Shown here piece after piece: positions 1 through 63,018 of a stretch of 64,000 nucleotides of DNA. The notes beneath the pieces were generated by a model, which saw nothing but the letters and a program-made list of their open reading frames with translations, made no database searches and had not been told where the DNA came from. Source of the stretch: Escherichia coli. Its GTDB lineage: Bacteria; Pseudomonadota; Gammaproteobacteria; Enterobacterales; Enterobacteriaceae. The first letter of the stretch is position 1; every line of letters starts with the position of its first letter. Location of the stretch: assembly GCF_003991155.1 (NCBI RefSeq), contig NZ_CP031293.1. One strand, 5' to 3'. A program made the translations under genes and the position numbers.

Positions 1-1292
1 ACGTCGCCGTTTTCCAGCGTGACTTTCGGCTGAATAAACATCTTGCCGACCGGAGAGTGCTTCGCTTCGCCCTCACGCACCAGCGCACCGCCGTAATATT
101 GCGGCATCGGCTTGAAGCGCATTTCAAGGAAGTAGCGTTTTACTGGCGGCAGATAATTCAACAGCCAGGAAACGCCGTCACGTAATGTACCCTGCCAGCG
201 TTTCGGCGGAGCCAGCACGTTGCCCGCCGTCACGGACAGGTCAATCATCGCTTTGGCGTGATCGCGACGTTCTTGTTGATAGGTATCGAGCAGCGCATCG
301 CGGGCTTTCCCCTGGATAACCAACGCCAGTTTCCATGCGAGGTTAAAGGCGTCGCGCATACCACTGTTATAGCCCTGCCCCTGCCACACCGGCATGATGT
401 GTGCGGCATCGCCCGCCAGCAGTACGCGATCAATACGAAAACGTTGCGCCAGTCGCGCGTTGTGGGTGTAGACACGCTGGCGAATCAATTCAACATTGTC
501 CGGATTAGGCAGCACTTTGCTTAACAGCTTGCGCATATTTTGCGGCTCACGCAGCTGTTCTTCGGTTTCTCCCGGCATCACCATAAATTCAAAGCGACGT
601 ACCGCATGAGGCAGCGCGGCAGAAACATACGGGCGCACCGGATCACAACACAAATAGATATGCGGCGTACTTAACGGATCGTTGGCGATATCTACCACAA
701 TCCACTGATTTGGCGCAGTTTTACCTTCAAACGGCACATTCAGGGTGCGACGGACAAAACTTGCCCCACCATCACAGGCCACCAGCCACTGGGCTTTGAC
801 CGTTTCCCGCTGCCCTTCTTCCGTTTTTAGGTGCAAGGTCACTTCGTCATCTTGCTGGCTGAAGGCCTCCAGCTCGCGGGAAAACAGGCAGCGCACATTC
901 GGAAAACGCGACAATCCTTCCAGCATCACCGCATCGACCTGAGGCTGAATAAAGGCGTTACGGCGCGGCCAGCCAAATTCATCGGTCATTGGCTGAATAT
1001 CAGCAAAACAGCGACCTTTTGGGGTGAGAAAACGCATCGCGTGCCACGGCGTAGTGTGCGGCAGAACATTATCGACCAGGCCAACCGACTGCATGGTGCG
1101 CAGCGCCTCGTCATCAATACCAATCGCACGCGGGTAGTCGATCAACTTATCGAGTTTCTCCACCACCAGCACGTCAATGCCCATCTGGCCGAGATAGTTC
1201 GCCATCATCAGCCCGACCGGACCGGCACCAGCGATCGCCACCTGAACGCTATGGTTAACAGCAGGCTGGATGTCAGGGTGTTGTATTGCCAT
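1..1292 (-). CDS. mhpA: 3-(3-hydroxyphenyl)propionate hydroxylase, 5' part of gene (C-terminus lies beyond window start)
   Basis: Reverse-strand translation from ATG at 1292..1290 gives [46 protein letters not shown] with an FAD-binding GxGxxG motif; divergent from mhpR as in E. coli. The plus-strand ORFs in the track (258..524, 831..1358) are antisense artefacts. Confidence 0.85.
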
Positions 1293-1433
1293 TTCAGTAC
1301 CTCACGACTCGGACAAAATGCCGTTGCGCGCACAGTACAGCGCAACTTGTTTTGTTAAAAACATGTAAATGATTTTTTATTGTGCGCTCAGTATAGGAAG
1401 GGTGTTTTCGGCTACAATCAAAACATGCCCGAA

Positions 1434-1450
1434 TGTGCACCAGGTGCACA
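1434..1450. promoter_or_regulatory. 17-bp perfect palindrome TGTGCACCAGGTGCACA in the mhpR-mhpA divergent region; probable MhpR operator
   Basis: Palindrome read directly from the sequence; position between the IclR-type regulator and its target operon. Assignment to MhpR is from memory of the mhp promoter literature. Confidence 0.55.
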
Positions 1451-1482
1451 ACGTTGTTTTAACTATATAAATGTCAATTAAT

Positions 1483-2316
1483 ATGCAGAACAATGAGCAG
1501 ACGGAATACAAAACCGTGCGCGGCTTAACCCGCGGTCTAATGTTATTAAATATGTTAAATAAACTTGACGGCGGTGCCAGCGTCGGGCTGCTGGCGGAAC
1601 TCAGCGGCCTGCATCGCACCACTGTGCGGCGACTGCTGGAGACGCTGCAGGAAGAGGGATATGTCCGGCGTAGTCCCTCCGATGATAGTTTCCGTTTGAC
1701 CATCAAAGTGCGGCAATTAAGCGAAGGATTTCGTGACGAACAGTGGATTTCTGCACTGGCTGCCCCACTGCTGGGCGATCTGTTGCGCGAAGTGGTATGG
1801 CCGACAGATGTGTCCACGCTGGATGTTGATGCAATGGTGGTACGCGAAACCACCCATCGTTTCAGCCGATTATCCTTTCACCGGGCAATGGTCGGGCGAC
1901 GGTTACCGCTTCTGAAAACCGCCTCGGGCCTGACCTGGCTGGCCTTTTGCCCGGAACAAGAACGCAAGGAATTAATCGAGATGTTAGCCTCCCGCCCCGG
2001 TGATGACTATCAACTGGCACGAGAACCGTTAAAGCTGGAAGCCATTCTGGCGCGCGCGCGCAAAGAGGGGTACGGACAGAACTACCGCGGCTGGGATCAG
2101 GAGGAGAAGATCGCCTCTATCGCCGTACCGCTGCGCAGTGAACAACGGGTGATTGGCTGTCTGAATCTGGTGTATATGGCGAGCGCAATGACCATCGAAC
2201 AGGCAGCGGAAAAGCATCTTCCGGCGCTGCAACGGGTGGCAAAACAGATCGAAGAAGGGGTTGAATCGCAGGCTATTCTGGTAGCGGGAAGGCGAAGCGG
2301 CGTGCATTTACGCTGA
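1483..2316 (+). CDS. mhpR: IclR-family transcriptional activator of the mhp operon
   Basis: ORF 1471..2316; second in-frame ATG at 1483 gives MQNNEQTEYKTVRGLTRG and the 277-aa length I recall for MhpR; IclR-type N-terminal HTH. Confidence 0.9.
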   Translation: MQNNEQTEYKTVRGLTRGLMLLNMLNKLDGGASVGLLAELSGLHRTTVRRLLETLQEEGYVRRSPSDDSFRLTIKVRQLSEGFRDEQWISALAAPLLGDLLREVVWPTDVSTLDVDAMVVRETTHRFSRLSFHRAMVGRRLPLLKTASGLTWLAFCPEQERKELIEMLASRPGDDYQLAREPLKLEAILARARKEGYGQNYRGWDQEEKIASIAVPLRSEQRVIGCLNLVYMASAMTIEQAAEKHLPALQRVAKQIEEGVESQAILVAGRRSGVHLR

Positions 2317-2392
2317 CACCATCGAATGGCGCAAAACCTTTCGTGGTATGGCATGATAGCGCCCGGAAGAGAGTCAATTCAGGGTGGTGAAT

Positions 2393-3475
2393 GTGAAACC
2401 AGTAACGCTATACGATGTCGCAGAGTATGCCGGTGTCTCTTATCAGACCGTTTCCCGCGTGGTGAACCAGGCCAGCCACGTTTCTGCGAAAACGCGGGAA
2501 AAAGTGGAAGCGGCGATGGCGGAGCTGAATTACATTCCCAACCGCGTGGCACAACAACTGGCAGGCAAACAGTCGTTGCTGATTGGCGTTGCCACCTCCA
2601 GTCTGGCCCTGCACGCGCCGTCGCAAATTGTCGCGGCGATTAAATCTCGCGCCGATCAACTGGGTGCCAGCGTGGTGGTGTCGATGGTAGAACGAAGCGG
2701 CGTCGAAGCCTGTAAAGCGGCGGTGCACAATCTTCTCGCGCAACGCGTCAGTGGGCTGATCATTAACTATCCGCTGGATGACCAGGATGCCATTGCTGTG
2801 GAAGCTGCCTGCGCTAATGTTCCGGCGTTATTTCTTGATGTCTCTGACCAGACACCCATCAACAGTATTATTTTCTCCCATGAAGACGGTACGCGACTGG
2901 GCGTGGAGCATCTGGTCGCATTGGGTCACCAGCAAATCGCGCTGTTAGCAGGTCCATTAAGTTCTGTCTCGGCGCGTCTGCGTCTGGCGGGCTGGCATAA
3001 ATATCTCACACGCAATCAAATTCAGCCGATAGCGGAACGGGAAGGCGACTGGAGTGCCATGTCCGGTTTTCAACAAACCATGCAAATGCTGAATGAGGGC
3101 ATCGTCCCCACTGCGATGCTGGTTGCCAACGATCAGATGGCGCTGGGCGCAATGCGCGCCATTACCGAGTCCGGGCTGCGCGTTGGTGCGGATATCTCGG
3201 TAGTGGGATACGACGATACCGAAGACAGCTCGTGTTATATCCCGCCGTTAACCACCATCAAACAGGATTTTCGCCTGCTGGGGCAAACCAGCGTGGACCG
3301 CTTGCTGCAACTCTCTCAGGGCCAGGCGGTGAAGAGCAATCAGCTGTTGCCCGTCTCACTGGTGAAAAGAAAAACCACCCTTCCGCCCAATACGCAAACC
3401 GCTTCTCCCCAGGCGTTGGCAGATTCTTTAATGCAGCTGGCGCGACAAATTTCCCGACTGGAAAGCGGGCAGTGA
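2393..3475 (+). CDS. lacI: lactose operon repressor LacI
   Basis: GTG start at 2393 gives (M)KPVTLYDVAEYAGVSYQTVSRVVN (LacI HTH) and 360 aa; C-terminus ...ARQISRLESGQ. A few substitutions versus the K-12 sequence as I recall it. Confidence 0.97.
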   Translation: MKPVTLYDVAEYAGVSYQTVSRVVNQASHVSAKTREKVEAAMAELNYIPNRVAQQLAGKQSLLIGVATSSLALHAPSQIVAAIKSRADQLGASVVVSMVERSGVEACKAAVHNLLAQRVSGLIINYPLDDQDAIAVEAACANVPALFLDVSDQTPINSIIFSHEDGTRLGVEHLVALGHQQIALLAGPLSSVSARLRLAGWHKYLTRNQIQPIAEREGDWSAMSGFQQTMQMLNEGIVPTAMLVANDQMALGAMRAITESGLRVGADISVVGYDDTEDSSCYIPPLTTIKQDFRLLGQTSVDRLLQLSQGQAVKSNQLLPVSLVKRKTTLPPNTQTASPQALADSLMQLARQISRLESGQ

Positions 3476-3488
3476 GCGCAACGCAATT
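3468..3488. promoter_or_regulatory. lac auxiliary operator O3
   Basis: GGCAGTGAGCGCAACGCAATT overlapping the lacI 3' end, matching the O3 sequence. Confidence 0.8.
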
Positions 3489-3509
3489 AATGTGAGTCAG
3501 CTCACTCAT
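3488..3509. promoter_or_regulatory. CRP (CAP) binding site of the lac promoter
   Basis: TGTGAGTCAGCTCACT, i.e. TGTGA-N6-TCACT, upstream of the -35 element. Confidence 0.85.
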
Positions 3510-3523
3510 TAGGCACCCCAGGC

Positions 3524-3553
3524 TTTACACTTTATGCGTCCGGCTCGTATGTT
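3524..3553 (+). promoter_or_regulatory. lac promoter, -35 TTTACA (3524..3529) and -10 TATGTT (3548..3553), 18-bp spacer
   Basis: Canonical lacP hexamers and spacing read directly from the sequence. Confidence 0.9.
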
Positions 3554-3559
3554 GTGTGG

Positions 3560-6672
<3,113 letters not shown>

Positions 6673-6678
6673 TAATAA

Positions 6679-7977
<1,299 letters not shown>

Positions 7978-8042
7978 GCAATCAATGTCGGATGCGGCGC
8001 GAGCGCCTTATCCGACCAACATATCAGGGCGGAATGATCGCA

Positions 8043-8654
8043 ATGAACATGTCGATGACAGAAAGAATAAAAGCAGGCAAGCTATTTACCGATATGTGCG
8101 AAGGCTTACCTGAAAAAAGACTTCGTGGGAAAACGTTAATGTATGAGTTTAATCACTCGCATCCATCAGAAGTTGATAAAAGAGAAAGCCTGATTAAAGA
8201 AATGTTTGCCACGGTAGGGGAAAACGCCTGGGTAGAACCCCCCGTCTATTTCTCTTACGGTTCCAACATCCATATAGGCCGCAATTTTTATGCAAATTTC
8301 AATTTAACCATTGTCGACGACTACACGGTAACGATCGGTGATAACGTATTGATTGCACCCAACGTTACTCTTTCCGTTACGGGACACCCGGTACACCATG
8401 AATTGAGAAAAAACGGAGAGATGTACTCTTTTCCGATAACGATTGGCAATAACGTCTGGATCGGAAGTCATGTGGTCATTAATCCAGGCGTCACCATCGG
8501 GGATAATTCTGTTATTGGCGCGGGTAGTGTCGTCATAAAAGACATTCCACCAAACGTCGTGGCTGCTGGCGTTCCTTGCCGGGTTATTCGCGAAATAAAC
8601 GACCGGGATAAGCAATATTATTTCAGAGATTACAAAGTTGAATCGTCAGTTTAA
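8043..8654 (+). CDS. lacA: galactoside O-acetyltransferase
   Basis: ORF 7992..8654; in-frame ATG at 8043 gives MNMSMTERI and 203 aa; hexapeptide-repeat acyltransferase region (IGDNVLIAPNV..., IGNNVWIGSHVVINPGVTIGDNSVIGAGS). Confidence 0.95.
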   Translation: MNMSMTERIKAGKLFTDMCEGLPEKRLRGKTLMYEFNHSHPSEVDKRESLIKEMFATVGENAWVEPPVYFSYGSNIHIGRNFYANFNLTIVDDYTVTIGDNVLIAPNVTLSVTGHPVHHELRKNGEMYSFPITIGNNVWIGSHVVINPGVTIGDNSVIGAGSVVIKDIPPNVVAAGVPCRVIREINDRDKQYYFRDYKVESSV

Positions 8655-8666
8655 ATTATAAAAATT

Positions 8667-8728
8667 GCCTGATGCGCTTCGCTTATCAGGCCTACAAGTT
8701 CAGTGATCTACGTAGGCCGCATCCGGCG
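8667..8728. repeat. REP (repetitive extragenic palindromic) element pair between convergent lacA and cynX
   Basis: GCCTGATGCGCTTCGCTTATCAGGCCTAC ... GTAGGCCGCATCCGGCG: inverted REP units with the typical GCC(G/T)GATGCG core. Confidence 0.7.
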
Positions 8729-8756
8729 TGAACAAAGCGCAGGAACAAGCGTCGCA

Positions 8757-9911
8757 TCATGCCTCTTTGACCCACAGCTGCGGAAAACGTGCTGGTGCAA
8801 AACGCAGGGTTATGATCATCAGCCCAACGACGCACAGCACATGAAACGCCCAGTCCATCAAGTAATTGCCACTGATACTACGCAGCACACCAGAAAACCA
8901 GGGAGCAAGCCCGGCGATGATAAAACCGCTCCCCTGCATAAACGCCACCAGTTTGCCAGCAATAGCCGGTTGCGCAGAGTGATCGAGCGCCAGCAGCAAA
9001 CAGAGCGGAAATGCGCCGCCCAGACCTAAACCACACACCATCGCCCAGAAGACCGGCAATTGCAGCGGCAGCCAGATAAAGCCGCAGAAACCCACCAGTT
9101 GTAACGCCAGCGCCAGCATCAAAAGTTTGCGCCGATCCTGATGGCGAGCCATAGCAGGCATCAGCAATGCCCCTGCAGCTTGCCCAAGCGTCATCAACGC
9201 CAGCAAGGAACCGCTGTACTGCGCGCTGGCACCAATCTCAATATAGAAAGCGGGTAACCAGGCAATCAGGCTGGCGTAACCACCGTTAATCAGACCGAAG
9301 TAAACACCCAGCGTCCACGCGCGGGGAGTGAATACCACGCGAACCGGAGTGGTTGTTGTCTTGTGAGAAGAGGCGACCTCGCGGGCGCTTTGCCACCACC
9401 AGGCAAAGAGCGCAACAACGGCAGGCAGCGCCCACCAGGCGAGTGTTTGATACCAGGTTTCGCTATGTTGAACTAACCAGGGCGTAATGGCGGCACCAAG
9501 TCCACCGCCGCCCATCAGAGCCGCGGACCACAGCCCCATCACCAGTGGCGTACGGTGCTGAAACCGCCGCTTAATTACCGAAGGCATCACTGCCTGAATG
9601 ATGCCGATCCCCACTCCACCAAGCAGTGCGCTGCTAAGCAACAGCGCACTTTGGGGGTAAAGCTCACGCATCAATGCACCGACGGCAATCAGTAACAAAC
9701 TGATGGCGACGCTGCGACGTTCGCTGACATGCTGATGAAGCCAGCTTCCGGCCAGCGCCAGCCCGCCCATGGTAACCACCGGCAGAGCGGTCAACAGGGC
9801 AGCCACGCTAAAGCTCATTCCGCTTGCCTGGCGCAATTGCGGTAGCAGTGGCCCGACGGAGGTGAGCAGTGGTCGCATATTAAGACCAATCAGCACCAGA
9901 ACCAGCAGCAT
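8757..9911 (-). CDS. cynX: cyanate transporter (MFS)
   Basis: ORF 8757..9938; start placed at the ATG giving MLLVLVLIGLNMRPLLTSVGP (384 aa); membrane protein directly downstream of cynS in the cynTSX operon. Confidence 0.9.
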   Translation of the reverse strand: MLLVLVLIGLNMRPLLTSVGPLLPQLRQASGMSFSVAALLTALPVVTMGGLALAGSWLHQHVSERRSVAISLLLIAVGALMRELYPQSALLLSSALLGGVGIGIIQAVMPSVIKRRFQHRTPLVMGLWSAALMGGGGLGAAITPWLVQHSETWYQTLAWWALPAVVALFAWWWQSAREVASSHKTTTTPVRVVFTPRAWTLGVYFGLINGGYASLIAWLPAFYIEIGASAQYSGSLLALMTLGQAAGALLMPAMARHQDRRKLLMLALALQLVGFCGFIWLPLQLPVFWAMVCGLGLGGAFPLCLLLALDHSAQPAIAGKLVAFMQGSGFIIAGLAPWFSGVLRSISGNYLMDWAFHVLCVVGLMIITLRFAPARFPQLWVKEA

Positions 9912-9943
9912 CGTGAACGTCTTTTGATGGTTACGCATGGCTG

Positions 9944-10432
<489 letters not shown>

Positions 10433-10444
10433 TTAAAAATAAGG

Positions 10445-11104
10445 TTACGCTGCGGTCGGTTGGCGTAGCGGTATGGCACAAACGCGAGGATTAGCGGCCA
10501 GTGGCACAAACTGGCGGGTTGCGCCGTCAAAAGCTGCGATGCTGCCGCTTGCAATGTCGTAGACCCAGCCGTGCAGGGCGATCCGCCCCTCTTCGAGCGC
10601 CAGGCGCACCGATGGATGAGTTTGCAAATTAGCCAACTGAGCAATGACGTTTTCACGTACCATCGCCGCAGCTTTTGACGGTAAATCGGGATGCGGGCGC
10701 GCCTCATTAACGACGCGGGCTGAATCGGCATAACGCAGCCAGTGGGAGACGGCAGGCATATGGTCCATGCACTGACAGCTGGCAATGGCGGTCATCGCGC
10801 CACAGTTGGAATGACCGCAAATCACAATGTCAGATACCCGAAGCGCAGCGACGGCGTACTCCACCGAAGCAGAAACGCCACCGGGTTCCGGCCCGTAGGA
10901 AGGGACGATATTGCCCGCGTTGCGAATAACGAACAGATCGCCAGGCTCACGTTGCGTCACCAGCTCAGGGACCAGACGGCTGTCGGAGCAGGAGATAAAA
11001 AGTGTGCGCGGGCTTTGCTGTGTCGCCAGCTGTTTAAACAAGGCTTCCCGCTTCGGAAATGCCTCGCGCTGGAATTTAAGGAATCCATCAATAATCTCTT
11101 TCAC
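10445..11104 (-). CDS. cynT: beta-class carbonic anhydrase
   Basis: 219 aa; beta-CA zinc-ligand motifs CSDSR and HSNCG present. Confidence 0.95.
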
Positions 11105-11213
11105 CGTTAACCTCTGTCTGTCTCTGGAATGAGAGGCAGACTACTCGCCGATTGTCATAAGGTAAAAGTCTCATTTATGATGAGTTCTATTGGATTTACT
11201 TATAGGTTGGCGA

Positions 11214-12113
11214 ATGCTCTCTCGACATATCAATTATTTTCTTGCCGTGGCTGAACATGGCAGCTTTACCCGTGCCGCCAGTGCGTTGCACGTCTCCCAG
11301 CCTGCGCTTTCCCAGCAGATTCGCCAGTTAGAGGAGAGTTTAGGCGTGCCGCTGTTTGACCGTAGCGGGCGAACGATTCGTCTCACTGATGCGGGAGAAG
11401 TCTGGCGACAGTACGCCAGCCGGGCGTTACAGGAACTGGGGGCGGGTAAACGGGCGATTCATGATGTTGCCGATCTGACGCGAGGATCGCTGCGTATCGC
11501 CGTCACTCCCACCTTTACAAGCTACTTTATCGGCCCTTTAATGGCGGATTTCTATGCGCGCTACCCCGGCATCACGCTCCAGCTACAGGAAATGTCGCAG
11601 GAGAAAATCGAAGATCTGCTTTGTCGCGACGAGCTGGACGTTGGGATTGCCTTCGCGCCTGCGCATTCGCCGGAGCTGGAGGCAATTCCTTTACTGACAG
11701 AAAGTTTAGCGTTAGTCGTGGCGCAACATCATCCGCTGGCTGCCTGTGAACAGGTGGCGTTGAGTCGCTTGCATGATGAAAAACTGGTCCTGCTCAGCGC
11801 GGAATTTGCCACCAGAGAGCAAATTGACCACTACTGCGAGAAAGCGGGGCTACATCCACAGGTGGTCATTGAGGCGAACTCAATTAGCGCGGTTCTGGAG
11901 CTGATTCGCCGCACTTCCCTTTCCACATTGTTGCCAGCAGCGATTGCCACACAACATGACGGGCTTAAAGCGATTTCTCTTGCCCCACCGTTACTGGAGA
12001 GAACGGCGGTTTTGTTGCGGCGGAAAAATAGCTGGCAGACAGCCGCCGCGAAGGCATTTTTACACATGGCGTTGGATAAATGCGCGGTTGTTGGCGGAAA
12101 TGAATCGCGGTAA
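11214..12113 (+). CDS. cynR: LysR-family activator of the cyn operon
   Basis: ORF 11190..12113; ATG at 11214 gives [40 protein letters not shown] (LysR HTH), 299 aa; divergent from cynT. Confidence 0.93.
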
Positions 12114-12126
12114 CCACTGACACAAT

Positions 12127-12208
12127 TGCCTGATGCGCTACGCTTATCAGGCCTACGAGTTCAGTGCTCTACGTAGGCCGGATAAGGCGTTCACGCCGCA
12201 TCCGGCAT
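12127..12208. repeat. REP element cluster between cynR and codA (convergent)
   Basis: GCCTGATGCGCTACGCTTATCAGGCCTAC ... GTAGGCCGGATAAGGCGTTCACGCCGCATCCGGCA. Confidence 0.7.
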
Positions 12209-12245
12209 AAACTACGCTCGCTTTGTCAACACACAGCCCAGCCGA

Positions 12246-13529
12246 TCACCGTTTGTAATCGATGGCTTCTGGCTGCTCCAGATATACGGTGGTTTGTGCC
12301 GGTTGTGTGCTGGCAATCACCTTGCCGCCACGTACCGAATAACGTACCGGAACCTGACGGCGCAGCGCATCAAACCCATTTTCAGCCGGCAGGATAATCA
12401 GGTTGGCGCTGTTTCCGGCGGCAATGCCGTAATCCTGCAAATTCAACGTCCTGGCACTGTGGTGGGTGATTAAATTCAGGCCATCGTTAATCTGCCCGTA
12501 GCCCATCAGCTGGCAAACATGCAGCCCCATATGCAGCACTTGCAGCATATTCGCCGTTCCCAGCGGATACCACGGATCGAAGACATCATCGTGACCAAAG
12601 CAGACGTTAATGCCGGACTCCAGCATCTCTTTAACGCGCGTGATGCCGCGACGTTTTGGATAGGTATCGAAACGTCCTTGCAGATGGATATTGACCAGCG
12701 GGTTGGCGACAAAGTTAATACCGGACATTTTCAGCAAGCGGAACAGGCGCGAGGTATACGCCCCGTTATAGGAGTGCATTGCCGTAGTGTGGCTGGCGCT
12801 GACTCGCGCGCCCATGCCTTCACGGTGCGCCAGGGCGGCAACGGTTTCAACAAAGCGCGACTGTTCGTCATCAATCTCATCACAGTGAACATCGATGAGA
12901 CGGTCGTATTTTTGCGCCAGGGCGAAGGTTTTATGCAGCGACTCCACGCCATATTCACGGGTAAATTCAAAATGCGGAATCGCCCCCACTACGTCTGCCC
13001 CTAAGCGTAACGCCTCTTCCAGCAACGCTTCACCGTTGGGATACGACAAAATCCCTTCCTGCGGGAAGGCGACGATTTGCAGATCAATCCACGGCGCAAC
13101 TTCCTGTTTCACTTCCAGCATCGCTTTCAACGCAGTCAGCGTTGCGTCGGAGACATCGACATGGGTACGCACATGCTGAATGCCGTTGGCAATCTGCCAT
13201 TTCAGCGTTTGCCAGGCGCGTTGTTTCACATCGTCATGGGTTAATAACGCTTTGCGCTCGGCCCAGCGTTCAATGCCTTCAAACAGCGTGCCGGACTGAT
13301 TCCAGTTCGGTTGTCCTGCGGTTTGCGTGGTGTCCAGGTGAATATGCGGCTCCACAAACGGCGGTATAACTAAACCTTGTTCGGCATCCAGGCTGTTTTC
13401 AGTTATGGGCATCACGCCGGATTGCGCATCAATGGCGCTGATTTTTCCGTCCTGCAGATAAATCTGCCACAGCCCCTCTTTGCCAGGTAACCGGGCGTTA
13501 ATAATTGTTTGTAAAGCGTTATTCGACAC
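12246..13529 (-). CDS. codA: cytosine deaminase
   Basis: ORF 12246..13544; GTG at 13529 gives (M)[15 protein letters not shown], 427 aa; amidohydrolase metal-binding HIHLD motif. Confidence 0.95.
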
Positions 13530-14954: not shown

Positions 14955-15008
14955 CGTCGCATCAGGCATCGGCGCATGGTGTCGGATGCGCCAGGCGACG
15001 CATCCGAC
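14955..15008. repeat. REP element between codB and prpE
   Basis: CGTCGCATCAGGCATCGGCGCATGGTGTCGGATGCGCCAGGCGACGCATCCGACA. Confidence 0.65.
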
Positions 15009-15014
15009 AATAAC

Positions 15015-16901
15015 CTACTCTTCCATCGCCTGGCGGATCTGATCCAACGACGCTGGATCATCAATGGTCGTCAGATCTCCAGGATCGCGTCCTTCGCAAA
15101 TCGCCTGGATCGTGCGGCGCAGCATTTTTCCGGATCGCGTTTTTGGCAATTGCGAGACAAACCAGACGTGCGCCGGGCGGCCAAAGTTGCCAATCTGGCT
15201 GTCCACCAGCGCCATAATCGCCTTCTCTTGCGAATGCGCCACCTCACGATCTTCCAGACTGTCGCTCTCTTTCGGAATGACAAACGCCACCGCCACCTGC
15301 CCTTTCAGCGCATCTTTCACCCCAACCACCGCCACTTCGGCAACGCCCGGATGACTGGAGATACTCTCTTCAATCTCGCGCGTCCCCAGCCGATGCCCGG
15401 CAACGTTAATTACATCGTCAGTGCGCCCGAGAATAAAGTGATAACCGTCAACGTCACGGATGCCCCAGTCAAAGGTGGCGTACACCGGGCGGGAAAACAG
15501 CGACCAGTACGTCTTCACAAAGCGGTCGTCGTCGCCCCAGATGGTCTGAATACACCCCGGCGGCAGCGGCCCTTCCACCACCAGCATCCCTTTCTCGTTG
15601 ACGCCACACGGTTCGCCGGTGACTTCATTAAGCAACTGCACGTTATAGCCATACATCGGCACGCCGGGGCTTCCCAGACGCGTCTGCCTGTCGTCCAGAC
15701 CGCGAGCAATCGCCATAATCGGCCAGCCGGATTCGGTCTGCCAGTAGTTGTCGATGACCGGCACATCCAGCGTATTGCTCACCCAACTGGCGGTCGGCTC
15801 GTCCAGCGGTTCTCCAGCCAGATAGAGCACTTCCAGCGACGAGAGATCGTGTTTGCGAATTTCAGCGGTAGGGAATTTTTTCAGCACGCGAATGGCGGTC
15901 GGCGCTGAGAACATCCGGCTAACCTGATATTTCTCGACGATTTTCCACCACACACCGCAGTCCGGCCAGATCGGTAATCCTTCGTAAACGATAGTCGCCA
16001 TCCCCGCCAGCAGCGGCGCGTAGACGATATACGAATGCCCCACCACCCAGCCGATATCCGAAGCACAAAAGAACACACCGCCCGCTTTGCCGCCAAAAAT
16101 GGTGTCCATCGAGGTCGCCAGCGCCACCGCATATCCGCCGACGTCACGCTGCACGCCTTTAGGTTTGCCGGTCGTGCCGGAGGTGTAGAGAATGCAGGAG
16201 GTTTCGTTGGATTCCAGCCACGCTACCGGCACCCGCGCGCCGATGTGTTGATGGCGCAATGACGCGAAATCGACATCCCGCCCGCTGACGCGCGCCATTT
16301 TCGCCAGCCCGCGATCCACCAGCAAAACGTGGCGCGGCTGATGCTGCGCCTGACTTATCGCATCGTCGAGCAATTTTTTATAAGGAATGATTTTGCCACC
16401 GCGCGCTCCGGCATCTGCCGAGACAATCAGCACCGGTTTAGCGTCATCAATCCGCGCCGCCACGCTGTGCGAGGCAAATCCACCAAACACCACCGAGTGA
16501 ATAGCGCCAATGCGCGCGCAGGCCAGCAGAGTAATATGCGCTTCGGCAATCATCGGCATATACACCAGCACCCGATCGCCACGCTGCACGCCCAGTGAGC
16601 GCAGCATTGACGCCACTGCGTTCACTTCGTCATGCAGCTGACGAAAGGTAAAGGTGCGCTCTTCTTCTGTTTCCGAAGAGACGGCAATCAGCGCCAGCGC
16701 CTCTGGCTGTTTCTCCAGCCAGCGGTCGATAGCGTTGTGACACAAGTTGGTTCGGCCTTCACAAAACCAACGGGCAAACGGCGGATTGCTGTGATCAAGC
16801 GTTTGCGTAAAGGGCGTCTGCCAGTCAATACGCCGGGCCTGCTCGGCCCAGAACTTCTCCGGTTCGTTAATCGAACGCTGATAAAATTCGCTAAAAGACA
16901 T
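15015..16901 (-). CDS. prpE: propionyl-CoA synthetase (acyl-CoA synthetase family)
   Basis: 628 aa; AMP-binding motif YTSGTTGKPKGV; last gene of prpBCDE. Confidence 0.95.
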   Translation of the reverse strand: MSFSEFYQRSINEPEKFWAEQARRIDWQTPFTQTLDHSNPPFARWFCEGRTNLCHNAIDRWLEKQPEALALIAVSSETEEERTFTFRQLHDEVNAVASMLRSLGVQRGDRVLVYMPMIAEAHITLLACARIGAIHSVVFGGFASHSVAARIDDAKPVLIVSADAGARGGKIIPYKKLLDDAISQAQHQPRHVLLVDRGLAKMARVSGRDVDFASLRHQHIGARVPVAWLESNETSCILYTSGTTGKPKGVQRDVGGYAVALATSMDTIFGGKAGGVFFCASDIGWVVGHSYIVYAPLLAGMATIVYEGLPIWPDCGVWWKIVEKYQVSRMFSAPTAIRVLKKFPTAEIRKHDLSSLEVLYLAGEPLDEPTASWVSNTLDVPVIDNYWQTESGWPIMAIARGLDDRQTRLGSPGVPMYGYNVQLLNEVTGEPCGVNEKGMLVVEGPLPPGCIQTIWGDDDRFVKTYWSLFSRPVYATFDWGIRDVDGYHFILGRTDDVINVAGHRLGTREIEESISSHPGVAEVAVVGVKDALKGQVAVAFVIPKESDSLEDREVAHSQEKAIMALVDSQIGNFGRPAHVWFVSQLPKTRSGKMLRRTIQAICEGRDPGDLTTIDDPASLDQIRQAMEE

Positions 16902-16940: not shown

Positions 16941-18392
16941 TTAAATGACGTACAGGTCGAGATACTCATTGACCGGCATCTGTTCCAGGCGAGTTCTGTC
17001 GAGAGAAACCTCCAGAATGCGCTGCTGTTGGCGAGTCGGGAACTGGCGCGCGAGATTGATTTTGAATTTATCGACCAGCTTCGGAATTCCATCCTGACGG
17101 CGGCGAGCATGACCAATGGGGTACTCCACCACCACTTCTTCAAAGCGCGTGCCGTCGGTGAACTCAAGGGTTATGGCATTGGCGATGGCGCGTTTTTCCG
17201 GGTCGTGGTAGTCAGCGGTAAACGCCGGATCTTCAAAGCAATTGATCTTCTCGCGCAGGGCGTCGATGCGTTTATCTTGCGCAACGTTGTCCTCGTAATC
17301 TGCCGCCGTTAAGCGCCCGAACAGCAGCGGGATCGCCACCATGTACTGAATGCAGTGGTCGCGGTCAGCCGGGTTATTGAGCGGCCCTTTTTTGTCGATG
17401 ATGCGAATACAGGCTTCGTGGGTGCGAATGGTCACTTTTTCGATATCCGCCGCCGTTTTGCCTGCTGCCTGCATCTGTTCATAGAGCGTCATCGCCGCTT
17501 CAACTGCCGCCTGGGAGTGGAACTCCGCCGGGAAGGAGATTTTGAACAGCACATTTTCCATGACGTAGGAACCGTACGGACGCTGGAAGCGGAATGACTC
17601 ACCTTTAAAGGAGACGTCGTAGAAACCCCACACCGGCGCGGTCAGGGCTGACGGGTAACCCATTTCGCCCGTTTTCGCCATCAGCGCCAGACGTACCGCG
17701 CGGGATGTAGCATCGCCCGCCGCCCAGGATTTACGCGTGCCGGTGTTCGGCGCATGGCGGTAGGTGCGCAGCGACTGTCCGTCTACCCATGCCAGCGAAA
17801 CGGCGTTGAGGATTTCATCACGGGTCAGGCCAAGCATTTCGGCGACCACGGCGGTGGAAGCCACTTTCACTAACAGAACGTGGTCAAGGCCGACGCGATT
17901 AAAGGAGTTTTCCAGCGCGATGCAGCCCTGAATTTCATGGGCTTTAATCATTGCGGTCAGCACCTGTTTCATGGTCAACGGGGCTTTGCCGCTGGCGACC
18001 GCGTTGCGTGAAAGCCAGTCTGCCGTTGCCAAAATACCGCCGAGGTTGTCGGAAGGATGCCCCCACTCCGCCGCCAGCCAGGTATCGTTGAAATCGAGCC
18101 AACGGATCATCGCGCCGATGTTAAATGCCGCCTGGACGGGGTCGAGCTGGAACTGAGTTCCGGGGACGCGCACGCCGTTAGGTACGACGGTGCCGGGGAC
18201 AATTGGCCCCAGCAGTTTTTTACAGGCTGGGTATTCGAGAGCTTCAAGACCGCAGCCGAGCGTGTCGAGCAGGCAGTAATGTGCGGTGTCGTAGGCTACT
18301 CTGGAGCTGATTTCGTAGTTCATCACGTAATCGACGATATCAACGATTTCACGATCAAATTCCGGGCGGATGTTGTTGATTTGAGCTGACAT
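16941..18392 (-). CDS. prpD: 2-methylcitrate dehydratase
   Basis: 483-aa ORF (MmgE/PrpD family) [30 protein letters not shown]; operon position. Confidence 0.95.
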
Positions 18393-18425
18393 TGGGTACG
18401 TTTCCTTATTGTTATTCGTAGAGGT

Positions 18426-19595
18426 TTACTGGCGCTTATCCAGCGCGACAAACGGGCGGTCTTCCGGTCCAACATAATTGGCGGAAGGACGGATAATTTT
18501 GTTGTCCTGACGTTGTTCGATAATGTGCGCCGCCCAGCCGGTGACGCGGGCGATAACAAACAGTGGTGTGAACATCTCGGTGGGAACGCCCATCATGTTG
18601 TAGGAAACAGCGGAGAACCAGTCGAGATTGGGGAACATCTTTTTGCTCTCCCACATCACCGTTTCCAGGCGATCGGCGATGTTGTACATCTTCAGCGAAC
18701 CGCCTTCCTGCGAGAGCTGCTTCGCCACGCGTTTGATCACCTGATGACGCGGGTCAGCGATGGTATAAACCGGATGTCCAAAACCAATCACCACTTCTTT
18801 GTTTTCCACGCGCTTGCGGATATCGGCTTCGGCTTCGTCCGGCGTTTCGTAGCGTTGCTGGATCTCCAGCGACACTTCATTCGCCCCGCCGTGCTTCGGC
18901 CCGCGCAGTGCACCAATCGCGCCAATAATGGCGGAATACATATCAGAGCCGGTGCCCGCAATCACCCGGCTGGTAAAGGTGGAGGCGTTAAACTCGTGTT
19001 CGGCGTACAGCACCAGCGAAATATGCATCGCCTTTTCCCAGCTTTGCGACGGCTTTTCGCCATGCAGCAGATGCAGGAAGTGACCGCCGATGGAGTCGTC
19101 ATCGGTTTCCGGCTGAATGCGTTCGCCGTTGTGGCTGTAGTGATACCAGTAGAGAAGAATCGAGCTAAGTGACGCCAGCAGTTTGTCGGCAATATCCCGC
19201 GCACCAGATACAGTGTGCCCCTCTTTTTCCGGCAGTGTGCAGCCGAGCGCGGAAACGCCGGTGCGCATAACATCCATCGGGTGTGACGCCGCCGGTAAGG
19301 CTTCCAGCACGGTACGCACGTTAGCCGGTAAACCACGCAGGGCTTTCAGTTTCGTTTTGTAAGCGGCGAGTTCGTCACGGGTTGGCAGTTTGCCGTGGAT
19401 CAGCAGGTGCGCCACTTCTTCAAATTCACAATGTTCCGCCAGATCAAGAATATCGTAGCCACGGTAATGCAGGTCGTTGCCGCTTTTACCCACGGTGCAG
19501 AGCGCCGTATTGCCCGCCGGAACGCCGGAAAGTGCCACCGATTTTTTCGGTTTAATGACATGGGTACTGTTTTGCAGGATCGTTGTGTCGCTCAT
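18426..19595 (-). CDS. prpC: 2-methylcitrate synthase
   Basis: 389 aa; citrate-synthase signature GFGHPVY and conserved catalytic region. Confidence 0.95.
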
Positions 19596-19620
19596 ATTGT
19601 CCTCGTCATTGTTATCATTT

Positions 19621-19733
19621 GTAGGGTCGAGATTGTTGTCGGATGCGACGCTATGCGTCTTATCCGACCTACAGTTCAGTTCACCTCGTAGGCCTGATAA
19701 GTCGCGTCAGCGGCGCATCAGGCATCGGTTGTC
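19621..19733. repeat. REP element cluster in the prpB-prpC intergenic region
   Basis: GTCGGATGCGACGCTATGCGTCTTATCCGACCTAC ... GTAGGCCTGATAAGTCGCGTCAGCGGCGCATCAGGCATCG. Confidence 0.7.
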
Positions 19734-19754
19734 GAATACAACCAACGGGCGTTT

Positions 19755-20645
19755 TTATTTCACCTGACCACGGGCAAACAGGTCGTCGAGCTTCTCTTCG
19801 TACTGGTAGTAGTTGATGCTTTCGTACAGCTCGTTGCGGGTCTGCATGGTGTCGATGACGCTTTTCTGCGTGCCTTCCTGACGCAGGACGTTGTAGACAT
19901 GTTCAGCGGCGCGGTTCATGGCACGGAACGCTGAAAGCGGGTACAGCGCCATTGCGACATGGGCGCTGCGTAATTCGTCGGTGGTAAACAGCGGTGTTGC
20001 GCCAAATTCGGTGATGTTGGCGAGGATCGGCACCTGCACCGCATCGGCAAACTGGCGGTACATGGCGAGTTCGGTAATCGCCTCCGGGAACAACATCTCG
20101 GCACCCGCTTCAACATAGGCCTGCGCGCGCTCGATCGCGGCGTCCAGCCCCTCTACCGCCAGCGCATCGGTGCGCGCCATGATCACAAAATCAGGATCGG
20201 TTTTCGCATCCACCGCCGCGCGGATCCGATCCACCATCTCCTCTTTCGAGACAATCGCTTTGTTCGGACGATGACCGCAGCGTTTCGCACCAACCTGATC
20301 TTCAATATGCAATCCTGCCGCACCGGCTTTAATCATCGATTTCACGGTGCGCGCCACGTTAAAGGCCGAAGAACCAAAACCGATATCCGCATCCACCAGC
20401 AGCGGCAGCGAACAAACGTCGGTAATACGGCGAATATCTGTCAGCACGTCATCAAGAGTAGAAATACCGAGATCCGGCAGCCCCAGCGACCCTGCCGCCA
20501 CGCCACCGCCGGAAAGATAAATCGCCTGATATCCGGCACGCCGCGCCAGCAGCGCATGGTTAGCGTTGATGGTGCCAACAATCTGCAATGGATTTTCTTT
20601 AGTCAGTGCAGCGCGAAACGCTTTACCTGGAGAGTGTAGAGACAT
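19755..20645 (-). CDS. prpB: 2-methylisocitrate lyase
   Basis: 296-aa [37 protein letters not shown] (isocitrate lyase/PEP mutase superfamily); first gene of prpBCDE. Confidence 0.95.
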
Positions 20646-20692
20646 AGCCCATCCTTTGTTATCAACTTGTTATTTGCGTTAATAAACACAAA

Positions 20693-20707
20693 GCAAGGGG
20701 TGTGCCA
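20693..20707 (-). promoter_or_regulatory. sigma-54 promoter (-24 TGGCAC / -12 TTGC) for prpBCDE
   Basis: Reverse complement reads TGGCACACCCCTTGC, i.e. GG-N10-GC, about 50 bp upstream of the prpB start; consistent with the adjacent sigma-54 activator prpR. Confidence 0.75.
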
Positions 20708-20883
20708 CAATTGACTGAATAAAATTAAATGTTTAATTTCAATTTGTTAGAGATAAAGTCATGAAGTAATCCGCAAATATGTGTTTCAGTTAACGTTTCA
20801 GGCAATGTTTCACCGCGTTTCATTGCAACAATTATGAAACAAGGCTAAACCCAATATTCGGTTTCTTAACTTTGCGGTGCGCT

Positions 20884-22470
20884 ATGGCACATCCACCACG
20901 GCTGAATGACGACAAACCGGTTATCTGGACGGTATCGGTGACGCGCCTGTTCGAGCTGTTTCGCGATATCAGCCTCGAGTTTGATCACCTGGCGAACATT
21001 ACCCCTATTCAGCTTGGCTTTGAAAAAGCAGTGACCTATATCCGCAAGAAACTGGCAAACGAACGCTGCGACGCCATCATCGCCGCTGGCTCTAACGGCG
21101 CATATCTTAAAAGCCGCCTGTCAGTGCCAGTTATTTTGATTAAACCGAGCGGCTACGATGTGTTACAGGCACTGGCAAAAGCCGGAAAACTCACCTCTTC
21201 TATCGGCGTTGTCACTTATCAGGAAACTATTCCGGCACTGGTGGCGTTTCAAAAAACCTTTAATTTGCGCCTCGACCAACGTAGCTACATTACCGAAGAA
21301 GACGCGCGCGGGCAGATTAACGAGCTGAAAGCTAACGGCACCGAAGCGGTGGTCGGCGCGGGGCTGATTACCGATCTGGCAGAAGAAGCCGGAATGACCG
21401 GAATTTTTATCTATTCCGCCGCCACCGTGCGCCAGGCATTCAGCGATGCGCTGGATATGACGCGCATGTCGTTACGCCATAACACTCACGATGCCACCCG
21501 CAACGCTCTGCGTACTCGTTACGTGCTGGGCGATATGCTCGGTCAATCACCACAGATGGAACAGGTACGGCAGACTATTTTGCTGTATGCCCGCTCCAGT
21601 GCGGCGGTGTTGATTGAGGGGGAAACGGGGACGGGCAAAGAGCTGGCGGCCCAGGCGATTCATCGGGAATATTTTGCCCGCCACGATGCGCGACAGGGCA
21701 AAAAGTCGCATCCGTTTGTTGCCGTCAACTGCGGGGCGATTGCCGAATCGCTGCTGGAAGCGGAGCTGTTTGGCTATGAGGAAGGAGCGTTTACCGGCTC
21801 GCGACGTGGAGGTCGCGCCGGGCTGTTCGAAATTGCCCACGGCGGTACGCTGTTTCTGGATGAGATTGGCGAAATGCCGCTACCTTTGCAGACTCGCCTG
21901 TTACGGGTGCTGGAAGAAAAAGAGGTCACCCGCGTCGGCGGGCATCAGCCTGTTCCGGTGGATGTGCGAGTCATTAGCGCCACTCACTGCAATCTGGAAG
22001 AAGATATGCGGCAAGGGGAGTTTCGCCGTGATCTGTTTTATCGGCTGAGTATTTTGCGTCTGCAATTGCCACCACTGCGCGAGCGGGTGACGGATATTCT
22101 GCCGCTGGCGGAAAGCTTTTTGAAAGTGTCTCTGGCGGCGCTCTCCGCCCCGTTTTCTGCCGCATTACGCCAGGGGTTACAGGCAAGCGAAACCGTGCTG
22201 GTGCACTACGACTGGCCGGGAAATATTCGTGAACTGCGCAATATGATGGAGCGACTGGCGCTGTTTTTAAGTGTGGAACCGACGCCGGATTTAACGCCGC
22301 AATTTTTGCAGCTGCTACTGCCGGAACTGGCGCGCGAGTCGGCGAAAACTCCCGCTCCACGCTTACTGACACCACAACAGGCACTGGAGAAATTTAAAGG
22401 CGATAAAACAGCAGCGGCGAATTATTTAGGTATCAGCCGGACGACGTTCTGGCGGCGGCTGAAAAGCTGA
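20884..22470 (+). CDS. prpR: sigma-54-dependent activator of the prp operon
   Basis: ORF 20872..22470; ATG at 20884 gives [15 protein letters not shown]; AAA+ Walker A GETGTGKE and GAFTGS motif; C-terminal HTH. Confidence 0.93.
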
Positions 22471-29163: not shown

Positions 29164-29258
29164 GTTGTTATGTCCGCTACAGAGGGTGATGGGGTTATGA
29201 GAGTGAGGTTGCCCTTCTCCCCAAAAGGGAGAAGGTATCGTAAGGTGCGGTTGGAGGG

Positions 29259-43444: not shown

Positions 43445-43975
43445 CTCAGGAACCTATCAGATTGAGAGTTACCGTTCTACTATGAGGACCGAATCCTTAT
43501 ATAAAACACTGAGGTAACTCTCATGCTTCATATCCAGTATTCATGATGCTGGCTTTTTGCTGATATTTAACCCGAACATTCCTGATACAGACTATTAATT
43601 CATTTATCTGCGGCAGATTTTATTTTCTGGATATATTATGAGTGAACAAATCAAACAGGATATCGATCTGATTGAGATTTTATTTTATCTGAAGAAAAAG
43701 GTAGATGAATACCAACAAAACTCTGGGCAGTAATAAACAGCATTCTGATAGAGAGTGCCTGTATAAAGCTGAAGTGACAATGACCGGGAAGGGAACCCGT
43801 TTTCAGGAATGGATGCCTGTCTTTTTCAATTTAAATATCCTGGCATTAGTAATGCCAGGATATTTACAGAAGAGCAGCATAACCATGACGGAACGGGGTT
43901 AAGTCAGGTTGTCCTAAACGCTATTTTCAACCTCGTATGCCTTCTTCAGGTTTATGTCCAGACTTCATATCTCTC

Positions 43976-52963: not shown

Positions 52964-55900
52964 TTATTTCTCCTCAGCGCCTTCAGTATCTGCAGGAACG
53001 GCGTTAATTGTCACAGTCACTGGTTTCATTTCATACCCTCCATATGTCAAAGAGTTGAATGTGAATGTGTATGTACCTGGCTTGTTGGTACTAAATGTAC
53101 GCGTGATTTTCCCGTTCGCGAAATGGTCATTTTTCGACGGCAGGAACTGATAATCCGCCTCTGTCACCCCTTCCGGAGCCTCAATGTCGACCCACATGGT
53201 TCCTCCTACGGGGTTGACACCCGACATCAGAGTAACCGTCAGTGTTGCAGTTGTCTTCCCGTCCGCCACCAGAAAATCTACACGCTCTGGAGATGCAGCG
53301 AGCTCCGCGTTTTTATCATCCGCGACGAATTTAGATTCGGCAGTTTTCGTCGATTCCTGACCATCGGCCTGTTCCACTTTCGCCGTGAGTGTATATGTCG
53401 CTGCGACAGTGGTCGTGGCGGTGAAAATAGCCTGCCCTTGCTCATTCGTTGTCGCCGTCCCATTGGGAGTCAGAACTAAATTTTCCGGGCTGGCAGTCAG
53501 CGTCACTTCGCTATCTTTCAGCAGGTTGTTATTGGCATCAGTCACCGTAACTTTATACGTCTGTTTGGTTTTGCCATCCGCCACTGCACGGTTGCCAATC
53601 ACCTCAATACTGGAGATGGTCGCCGTAGTGTTATCGGCCACAAACGTTACAGACTGCGCATTCGAAGGCTGGTCATTTCCTGCTGACGCCGTGATCTCAT
53701 AGGTTCCGGCAGTCACGGAAACCACTTTCAGTTCCGCTTTACCCTCCTTGTCGGCGTTCACCATGATATTACCGTCTGCAAGCGGTTTGACGCCCCGAGG
53801 CAGATTAAAGACGACCACAGCGCCAGGAAGAAGGTTGCCGTATTGATCCTTAACCGTTGCCGTCAGCGTAAAGGCATCTTTGCCGTTTGCCACTTTTTGA
53901 GCAGCGGCGTCTACCTCCAGGCTCGCCTGACCGGTACTGAAATCCGCCTTGAATTTCACCTTGACCGTCTTCTGAGAGTTTTTCACCGAGGCCTCGATCT
54001 CAAGTTCCCCGGCAACCGTTGACATCAGCTCAATGTCAGCTTTACCTGCCGTATTGGTTGTTACCGTATTCCCCGTCTTGCTGGTCACGCCCTGCGGTAA
54101 AGTCAGCGTAACTTCTTGCCCCTGCAACGGGTTACCATAGCTGTCCACGACGGTCAGGGTTATCTGGTTAGCAGACTGTCCATTAGCCAGTTGGTTATTA
54201 ACCTTCACTGTCATATCACGAATCTCAGCCTTAGATGCGTCACCTGCAACGTTCAGCACCAGTGGCTGAGCAACGGCATTTTGGCCATTCACTCGCGGCA
54301 TCACAGACAACTGACCCGCGGCAGATCCCAGCGTTAAGGTCGCCACGTAGACCCCATTACTTTGCTCTGTCCAGCTTCCTGCTGAAGGTCGCTCACTCCC
54401 CGTGCTGGCGGCACCGCTAAACACTGGTGCATCGAGCTTCAGGCCACTAACAGGGTTCCCATACGCATCCTTCGCGGTGAAGGTAAGTTCCGTCGTCGCT
54501 TTGACGGTCGGAGCCTTATTGTCAGCAACAAGCGTAGAGTTCGCTGATGACATCTCCCCCGCAACGACAGTCAACCGCGCAGCATCGGTGGCTGCTGGCT
54601 GACCGTTGAATAGCGGCATAACGAGAAGCTCACCCGTCTTTCCCCCTGTGGTCAGCGTAGCGACATAGGAACCATCGCCCTGCTCGGTCCAGTTGGATAC
54701 CGTCGCCCCTTCAGACGCAGCACCCGTCAGGCTTGCCGACAGGGAAAGGCCACTGATAGCGTTGCCATGCGCATCTTTTGCAATAAGCGTCACGGTTGTG
54801 CTTTCGCCTGCTTTTACGCGGTCTGCGGCTACAGAGACTGTCGACTGGCCTGAAGATAACGCATCAGCCACCACGGTCACTTTAGCCGCATTCGCTGCCG
54901 CGTCCTGCCCATTGAGCTTCGGCATAACCTCTAATTCCCCCGCCGTAGTGCCGAGAGTAATCTGCGCAGTCCAGGTCCCGTCGCCATTATCCGTCCAGCC
55001 TGATGCCATAGACCCCGCAGCGGCTGCGCCAGATAATGACGGTGCATCTGGATTGAGGCCAATTACAGGGTTGCCATTGGCATCTTTTGCCGTCCAGATT
55101 GCCGTAAGCGTACCACCAACCACCGGTTTATCCGGATTCAGGGCGATGGTCGAATGTGCTGCATCAAGCGGCCCGGCGACAAACTTCAGCGTTTGTTGTA
55201 ATGAGCCCAACTGATACTGCTCGCTAAAGGCACGCACAACAACGTTTCCGGCACGGGTCGAAGAAACCGTGGCGCTGTAAACCCCTGGTTTTATTTCCGA
55301 AATGGCACCAATGGTTACACCATTAGTGTCTTGCGGAACAAGTCGCAGGCGGCTGGCTTCTCCCGTCACCGGATTACCCTCGGAGTCCACCGCTGTCAGT
55401 GTCAGCGTGTAGACTTGCTGACCATCAGCAACCACATCACCTGACGGCTCGTTAGCGCTCAGGGTGGAGTTTGCCACATCCATCATCGTGGCCCGCAGTT
55501 CTGCAGTGACAGTTTTGCTCATGTCATCAACGCTAACAGTAATCGTTGCCTCTCCTGACTGCGTTCCGGTAGTAAAGACAGACTGATACACCCCTGCTTC
55601 AGTTTCGGTGAACTCACCCAGTGTTGGCTTTGCCTGTGATTTAGTGGCCTTCAGGGTACGAGTCACAATATTTCCAGCCGGTTTGAACGTCAGCTCAGTC
55701 TTGATCTGATCTTTCATGCCCGTGACTGGCTGCCCCTCGGCGTCGCGCAGAGAAAGCACCAGTGGCTTTTGCTCACTACCGTTAGCAAGCATTTGAATAC
55801 GGCTCTGACCGTCAAGCGTTAACGCCGTGCGCTCGGCACTCATACCTGCTCCGGTAATGACCACCTCTGTCTGCACGTGTTTTGAGGCATTGCCTTTGTT

Positions 55901-57764: not shown

Positions 57765-60688
<2,924 letters not shown>

Positions 60689-60770
60689 CTAAACTTTCAG
60701 GAGATTTATTATGAATAAACGTATCCTCACGATTGCGCCATTCTTCTTACCGATATTCTGACACACATCA

Positions 60771-61697: not shown

Positions 61698-61853
61698 TGT
61701 AAACCTTAACTTAACACTGTGATAGATATTAGACCATTGATGATAACCAATACAAGTCATACTATTACGCCGTTCTCGATATGAACACGAATGCCAGTTG
61801 CGGATAATAGAAATGATATTTAAATCTGTTTAGGCAAATCCCCGGAGCTTGAA

Positions 61854-62774: not shown

Positions 62775-63018
62775 TAATCTTACAGGGAGATTCCTTATCT
62801 CCCTGACATTTATCCTTTATTGACTACACAACAATAATAAAATTACTCAAAAAGAAATTTCATTAAAGAAACAGAAAAGCAGCAACTCAATTATTAAGAT
62901 TATTAGAAACCCTTTGAAGGAATTATAAATAAAGCCATAATTCTTGGTTCCAAAGCTGGCAACAACTAACCAGTTAAAACATACGCATCAAAATCAGATA
63001 AACATTTGAGGTATTGTT

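Follow-up and report, generated by a model that had tools for sequence, protein, structure and literature searches.

The window, by which we mean the whole 64,000-nucleotide stretch of Escherichia coli DNA that was analysed, carries the lac genes on its plus strand: lacI (2393..3475, GTG start, 360 aa), lacZ (3598..6672, 1,024 aa), lacY (6724-7977, 417 aa) and lacA (8043-8654, 203 aa). All four open reading frames are full-length and are so annotated in the identical RefSeq record. Direct reading of positions 3300-3720 shows lacI ending, then the lac control region, then the first codons of lacZ; the lacI-lacZ intergenic region spans 122 bp (3476-3597). All promoter numbering used here is based on the +1 of lac P1, which we take to be the first base of the primary operator O1, at position 3560.

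The auxiliary operator O3 (GGCAGTGAGCGCAACGCAATT, 3468..3488, plus strand) is followed on the same strand by the 22-bp CRP site TAATGTGAGTCAGCTCACTCAT at 3488..3509, which extends from -72 to -51 and is centred at -61.5. The lac P1 core promoter occupies 3524..3553 (plus strand), with the -35 hexamer TTTACA at 3524-3529, an 18-bp spacer and the -10 hexamer TATGTT at 3548-3553. O1 (AATTGTGAGCGGATAACAATT) lies at 3560..3580 on the plus strand, and the second auxiliary operator, O2, is located inside lacZ at 3961..3981 on the minus strand. Between O1 and O2, the segment 3587..3603 (plus strand) holds the Shine-Dalgarno motif AGGA (3587-3590) and the lacZ ATG (3598), as well as two positions, 3591 and 3603, at which the alignment described below revealed SNPs. 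The three operators were found as exact 21-mers starting at 3560, 3468 and 3961, so that O1 (+11), O3 (-82) and O2 (+412) are at canonical spacing. The window thus has the sequence make-up of a canonical lac control region, consisting of two hexamers with an 18-bp gap, a CRP site at -61.5, three operators and intact flanking genes.

An earlier note on this DNA, made from the sequence alone, had proposed that the control region, LacI and LacZ carry natural variants relative to K-12, and had named a pairwise alignment as the way to check this. We aligned the corresponding region of K-12 MG1655 (NC_000913.3 360000-369000, reverse complement) to the window with BLAST. Over 9,001 bp (window 903-9903) the alignment was ungapped, with 232 mismatches and 97.42% identity. 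The differences at the positions singled out in the note are real, with no identity to K-12 seen there, and the K-12 strings that it gave match NC_000913.3 exactly. Gene order, spacing, promoter hexamers, spacer length, operators, CRP cores, the AGGA motif and the lacI and lacZ start codons are all the same as in MG1655. The differences comprise three intergenic SNPs, the SNP at +44, 5 amino acids in LacI, 24 in LacZ, 2 in LacY and 7 in LacA, the lacA start codon and a single base at 2344.

The three intergenic differences are 3498 T>C, 3538 T>G and 3591 A>T; together with 3603 C>T inside lacZ, they correspond to -62, -22, +32 and +44 on lac P1 numbering. The first of these accounts for the altered CRP site described in the earlier note, and it was recovered both by direct reading and in the ungapped alignment. 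Positions 3491-3506 read TGTGAGTCAGCTCACT where K-12 has TGTGAGTTAGCTCACT, with the mismatch at 3498. This is position 11 of the CRP site, immediately 5' of its dyad axis, and it is the only change in the site: the core pentamers TGTGA and TCACT are both intact. The altered spacer was likewise found by direct reading and alignment. It reads ...ATGCGTCCGG... in the window and ...ATGCTTCCGG... in K-12, with the mid-spacer mismatch at 3538. The weak P2 promoter, which overlaps P1, is reported to start at -22 as well. Exact-string searches showed that the -35 and -10 hexamers, O1, O2 and O3 are all identical to K-12, as had been claimed, and for the two hexamers the alignment gave the same result.

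The two remaining SNPs flank the lacZ start codon. The T at 3591 is the first base after the Shine-Dalgarno AGGA, at -7 from the ATG, and the T at 3603 is a synonymous change in lacZ codon 2, at +6 of the open reading frame, that is linked to 3591. Both were absent from the earlier note, as were the LacI substitutions T141A, G315S, A331P and R340Q.

We next considered the coding sequences. LacI differs from K-12 at 20 nucleotides and at five amino acids (T141A, G315S, A331P, R340Q and V353I), and the differing codons are divided into 14 synonymous and 5 nonsynonymous ones. The C-terminal ARQISRLESGQ reported previously is indeed present and corresponds to V353I. Among these substitutions, A331P is common to CFT073, SMS-3-5 and others, and the rare ones are G315S, R340Q and V353I, at 1-2% of genomes. 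R340Q lies at the start of the LacI tetramerisation helix, and V353 occupies a core heptad position of that helix, where a change could conceivably have a small effect on looping. Upstream of the gene, the only difference from K-12 in the mhpR-lacI intergenic region is 2344 C>T. It lies between the two lacI promoter hexamers, which we take to be GCGCAA (2329-2334) and CATGAT (2352-2357), and may have a slight effect on the number of repressor copies.

The scattered LacZ substitutions that the first reading had pointed to amount to 24 amino acids; at the nucleotide level there are 81 differences (53 synonymous and 24 nonsynonymous codons). Residues 1-116 of LacZ are the same as in K-12, as are all the residues checked for catalysis and metal binding (E462, E538, Y504, E417, H419, H392, N605 and W1000, counting Met1). 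LacY has 2 amino acid differences (12 synonymous and 2 nonsynonymous codons). LacA has 7 internal amino acid differences in addition to its start codon, with 13 synonymous and 8 nonsynonymous codons when the start codon is included. The substitutions in the four proteins appear to be ordinary between-lineage divergence, in which most of the change is synonymous. The lacA start codon itself (8043) is ATG in the window and TTG in K-12, and the sequence upstream of it (8026-8033) is CAGGGCGGAATGATCGCA in the window versus CATAACGGAGTGATCGCA in K-12. These changes at and upstream of the lacA start could alter LacA translation.

To place the promoter differences against the background, we compared the divergence of the intergenic region with that of its surroundings. 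The intergenic region differs from K-12 at 3 of 122 positions (2.5%) versus 232 of 9001 (2.6%) in the surrounding 9 kb, which is neither an excess nor a deficit. Wherever the window can be aligned, its identity to K-12 is 96.3-98.1%. We also considered whether lac might be a locally divergent island within a K-12-like genome, and rejected this because the entire window is 96-98% identical to K-12. E. coli 2016C-3878 (NZ_CP029747.1 709108-773107, reverse complement) differs from the window by 2 mismatches in 64,000 bases. A literature search for the sequence type of strain 2016C-3878 gave nothing.

We then determined how widespread the variant bases are among 5,426 complete E. coli genomes. For this, we used short queries in which the variable base was placed so that no 28-base megablast seed could avoid it, and only carriers of the window allele match. 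A centred 41-mer identified -62C in 2,544 genomes (47%), and +32T was found in 2,219 (41%). The exact window-type 41-mer around -22G matched 989 genomes, a number that undercounts the G allele since the neighbouring -28C and -23T of B2, E and F strains break the megablast seed. The K-12 allele, -22T, was found in 2,777 genomes, and the lac region is present in 5,389, so a base other than T occurs at -22 in about 2,600 (48%). The three-SNP haplotype was bounded, rather than counted in full, by two overlapping exact-match queries: the 67-bp CRP-to-spacer haplotype is present in 904 records and the 78-bp -35-to-ATG haplotype in 425. The LacI changes are far less frequent, with the V353I haplotype in 119 of the 5,426 genomes and the 41-mer carrying G315S in 68.

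An alignment of representative strains showed the same division. At -62, -22, +32 and +44 the bases are C, G, T and T in the window, CFT073, O157:H7 and SMS-3-5, and T, T, A and C in K-12 and JS01. In a sample of nine strains, -62 was the only polymorphic position of the CRP site. The window resembles CFT073, O157:H7 and SMS-3-5 in its -62C and -22G, and its only differences from these three strains are at -28 and -1, where they have C and A and the window keeps the T and G of K-12. The window control haplotype therefore mixes K-12-like bases (-28T and -1G) with bases like those of B2, E and F strains (-62C, -22G and +32T). At -1 (3559), the G shared by the window and K-12 is replaced by A in JS01, CFT073, O157:H7, SMS-3-5 and SCU-125; G was found in 800 of the 5,426 genomes (15%), and the K-12 base is thus the minority allele at this position.

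These frequencies bear on the claim that the variants mark a non-K-12 lineage. For the strain as a whole the claim stands, given the 96.3-98.1% identity to K-12 and the two mismatches to 2016C-3878. For the promoter variants it does not, as their alleles are those of roughly half of the sequenced E. coli. The promoter variants are alternative major alleles of ancient polymorphisms, with K-12 on the other side, and not narrow lineage markers; what is specific to the lineage are the changes in LacI. Of the two major haplotype classes of the lac promoter in nature, the textbook K-12 sequence represents just one.

The same counts leave next to no room for the differences being artefacts, whether sequencing or assembly errors in the window or an inaccurate K-12 reference in the earlier note. 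We found no point in support of such a reading. The K-12 strings given in the note agree exactly with NC_000913.3, hundreds to thousands of complete genomes, sequenced independently, have identical bases, and about 40 records carry the 6.5-kb lac block described below at 100.0% identity. A sequencing or assembly error was rejected on these grounds.

We consider it highly probable (roughly 90%) that this is a standard wild E. coli lac control region with K-12 architecture, in which the variants at -62, -22, +32 and +44 are old, high-frequency and apparently near-neutral. Given the conserved architecture, the textbook mechanism should hold. The promoter would be a class I CRP-dependent sigma-70 promoter, at which CRP-cAMP bound at -61.5 would recruit RNA polymerase to P1 via the alpha C-terminal domain. 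Repression would come from a LacI tetramer that is bound to O1 and forms a loop with O3 or O2, and allolactose or IPTG would release LacI. The variant positions are weakly constrained ones, namely the centre of the CRP dyad outside the cores, a mid-spacer base, the nucleotide that follows the Shine-Dalgarno motif and a synonymous site in lacZ, so at most small quantitative shifts are expected. The sequence differences, the allele frequencies and the mosaic pattern described below are observed directly; near-neutrality and an unchanged mechanism we infer from the conserved elements.

Published work on natural lac variation is consistent with this. In a study of the lac promoters of 91 E. coli strains, natural SNPs were mostly located at weakly regulating positions, and a widely shared CRP-site SNP, as well as SNPs in the RNA polymerase site, were predicted to change binding by <1 kBT (Razo-Mejia et al. 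2014, bioRxiv 10.1101/003772). That CRP-site SNP is probably the one at -62, since -62 is the sole polymorphic CRP position in our nine strains and its C allele has a frequency of 47%. Any effect on CRP dependence, which the earlier note had raised as a possibility, is predicted to be very small by this study, the sole source of a quantitative estimate that we found. A survey of 18 strains described 322 polymorphic sites in the 6,298 bp of lacI-ZYA; these polymorphisms showed little association with regulatory parameters, and a strong influence of the trans background was seen (Phillips et al. 2019, PMC6851279). Together with a study of expression noise (Vlkova & Silander 2022, bioRxiv 10.1101/2022.03.17.484780), these reports already catalogue and model the polymorphisms that we describe.

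The noise study is of particular relevance for the two SNPs around the lacZ start. All B2, D, E and F isolates in that study have T at -7 and T at +6, and most A and B1 isolates, MG1655 included, have A and C (Vlkova & Silander 2022). The window, with T at both 3591 and 3603, has the TT genotype and is like the B2, D, E and F class at both positions. It reads C, G, T, T where the K-12-type haplotype of the AC genotype has -62T, -22T, +32A and +44C. When 18 natural promoter variants were assayed in MG1655, TT and lower transcriptional noise in glucose went together without exception, with causality not established (Vlkova & Silander 2022). Such perfect co-segregation suggests that at least one linked site may not be neutral. 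The question that the window touches on is whether the A/C versus T/T pair by the lacZ start causally sets expression noise.

The variants may accordingly be read as regulatory tuning, in which -62C and -22G would shift CRP dependence or basal strength, T/T would lower noise in glucose, and balancing or diversifying selection would maintain the alternatives. Besides the co-segregation of -7T/+6T with low noise, one random -7 A>T mutant, which was also mutated in O3, moved to low noise (Vlkova & Silander 2022). Both allele classes are near 50% frequency, and the split between them follows phylogroups. However, because the alleles track phylogroup, their frequency alone reflects population structure, and the authors of the noise study leave causality unestablished and point out that the two genotypes could have persisted over long times through chance or correlated selection (Vlkova & Silander 2022). 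The CRP-site and RNA polymerase-site SNPs are predicted to contribute <1 kBT (Razo-Mejia et al. 2014), and much of the regulatory variation has been ascribed to the trans background (Phillips et al. 2019). The divergence of the intergenic region also equals the flanking, mostly synonymous, divergence. On balance we regard tuning as unlikely, and favour old, apparently near-neutral alleles in a standard control region.

Compared with SMS-3-5, divergence is unevenly distributed around the lac genes. A block of about 6.5 kb (2635..9174, no strand assigned) that begins within lacI, takes in the control region and lacZYA and reaches the 3' end of cynX is diverged by about 2%. The flanks contain 0 mismatches to SMS-3-5, both in 403-2634 (mhpA, mhpR and the beginning of lacI) and in 9175-12269 (cynX to cynR). 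A diverged block between identical flanks is a homologous-recombination mosaic, in which the lac block has a history separate from that of its immediate flanks. The whole 6,540-bp block was matched at >=99% identity in only 45 of 5,443 records, about 40 of which are at 100.0%; the next sampled ranks have 97.8-98.2% identity.

One explanation for this pattern is that the lac operon was imported by recombination from another E. coli lineage, with the control variants hitch-hiking on the 6.5-kb block. The change from 0 mismatches in the SMS-3-5 flanks to about 2% across 2635-9174 fits such an import, as does the small number of records with the block at >=99%, followed by ranks of 97.8-98.2%. Lac-locus transfers between phylogroups are also apparent in earlier work (Vlkova & Silander 2022). 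Yet SMS-3-5, the single comparator with close flanks, could be the recombinant instead. As -62C, -22G, +32T and +44T are present in SMS-3-5 anyway, the intergenic bases altered by an import would be no more than two, -28 and -1, and such mosaicism is routine in E. coli. We therefore put the import at about even odds. It complements the main explanation, that of a standard control region with old alleles, and does not replace it.

Strains that carry the block at 100.0% identity include MRY15-117, MRY15-131 and CREC-544, which have been published as ST457 (PMC5430464, PMC5884925). No difference between the window and these ST457 strains was detected over the 6,540 bp of the block. Based on these identical blocks, the lineage of the window is probably of the ST457 type.

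The combination of a mixed control haplotype with rare LacI changes in an ST457-type block might also be taken to mean that both arrived in one recombination event and that they jointly alter tetramer stability, looping or the CRP response. If this were true, this emerging lineage would differ measurably from others in the threshold of lac induction or in noise. The mixture of -28T and -1G with -62C, -22G and +32T, and the location of R340Q and V353I in the tetramerisation helix, are compatible with such a scenario, which we nevertheless consider very improbable.

Outside of the lac genes, additional differences were observed in the same comparisons. Alternating near-identical and diverged blocks relative to SMS-3-5 continue downstream, for example in 12270-12800, 15000-16500 and 17500-21000. 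Opposite window positions 8657-8743, the lacA-cynX intergenic region of SMS-3-5 has about 90 bp of consecutive mismatches that are essentially unalignable, which suggests a replacement of this stretch on the SMS-3-5 side. Between K-12 and the window, 7 of the 102 bases of the lacA-cynX intergenic region differ.

Further along the window, several loci differ in structure from K-12. A 103-bp unit occurs once in the prpB-prpC spacer (19635-19737) and aligns to three overlapping places in the K-12 sequence. The yahG-yahI spacer (29200-29257) is about 330 bp shorter than in K-12 and is without yahH, and at about 43692-43700 the window is without about 560 bp internal to the K-12 ykgH gene. The last part of the window, 57766-64000 (about 6 kb), had no match within the 75 kb of K-12 that was compared (296001-371000); it encodes aldo/keto reductases, two LysR regulators, an alpha/beta hydrolase and an NADH-flavin oxidoreductase. 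The fdeC inverse-autotransporter adhesin gene (52964-57214, minus strand, 4,251 bp) is intact in the window, whereas K-12 has only the IS3-interrupted eaeH pseudogene at this position.
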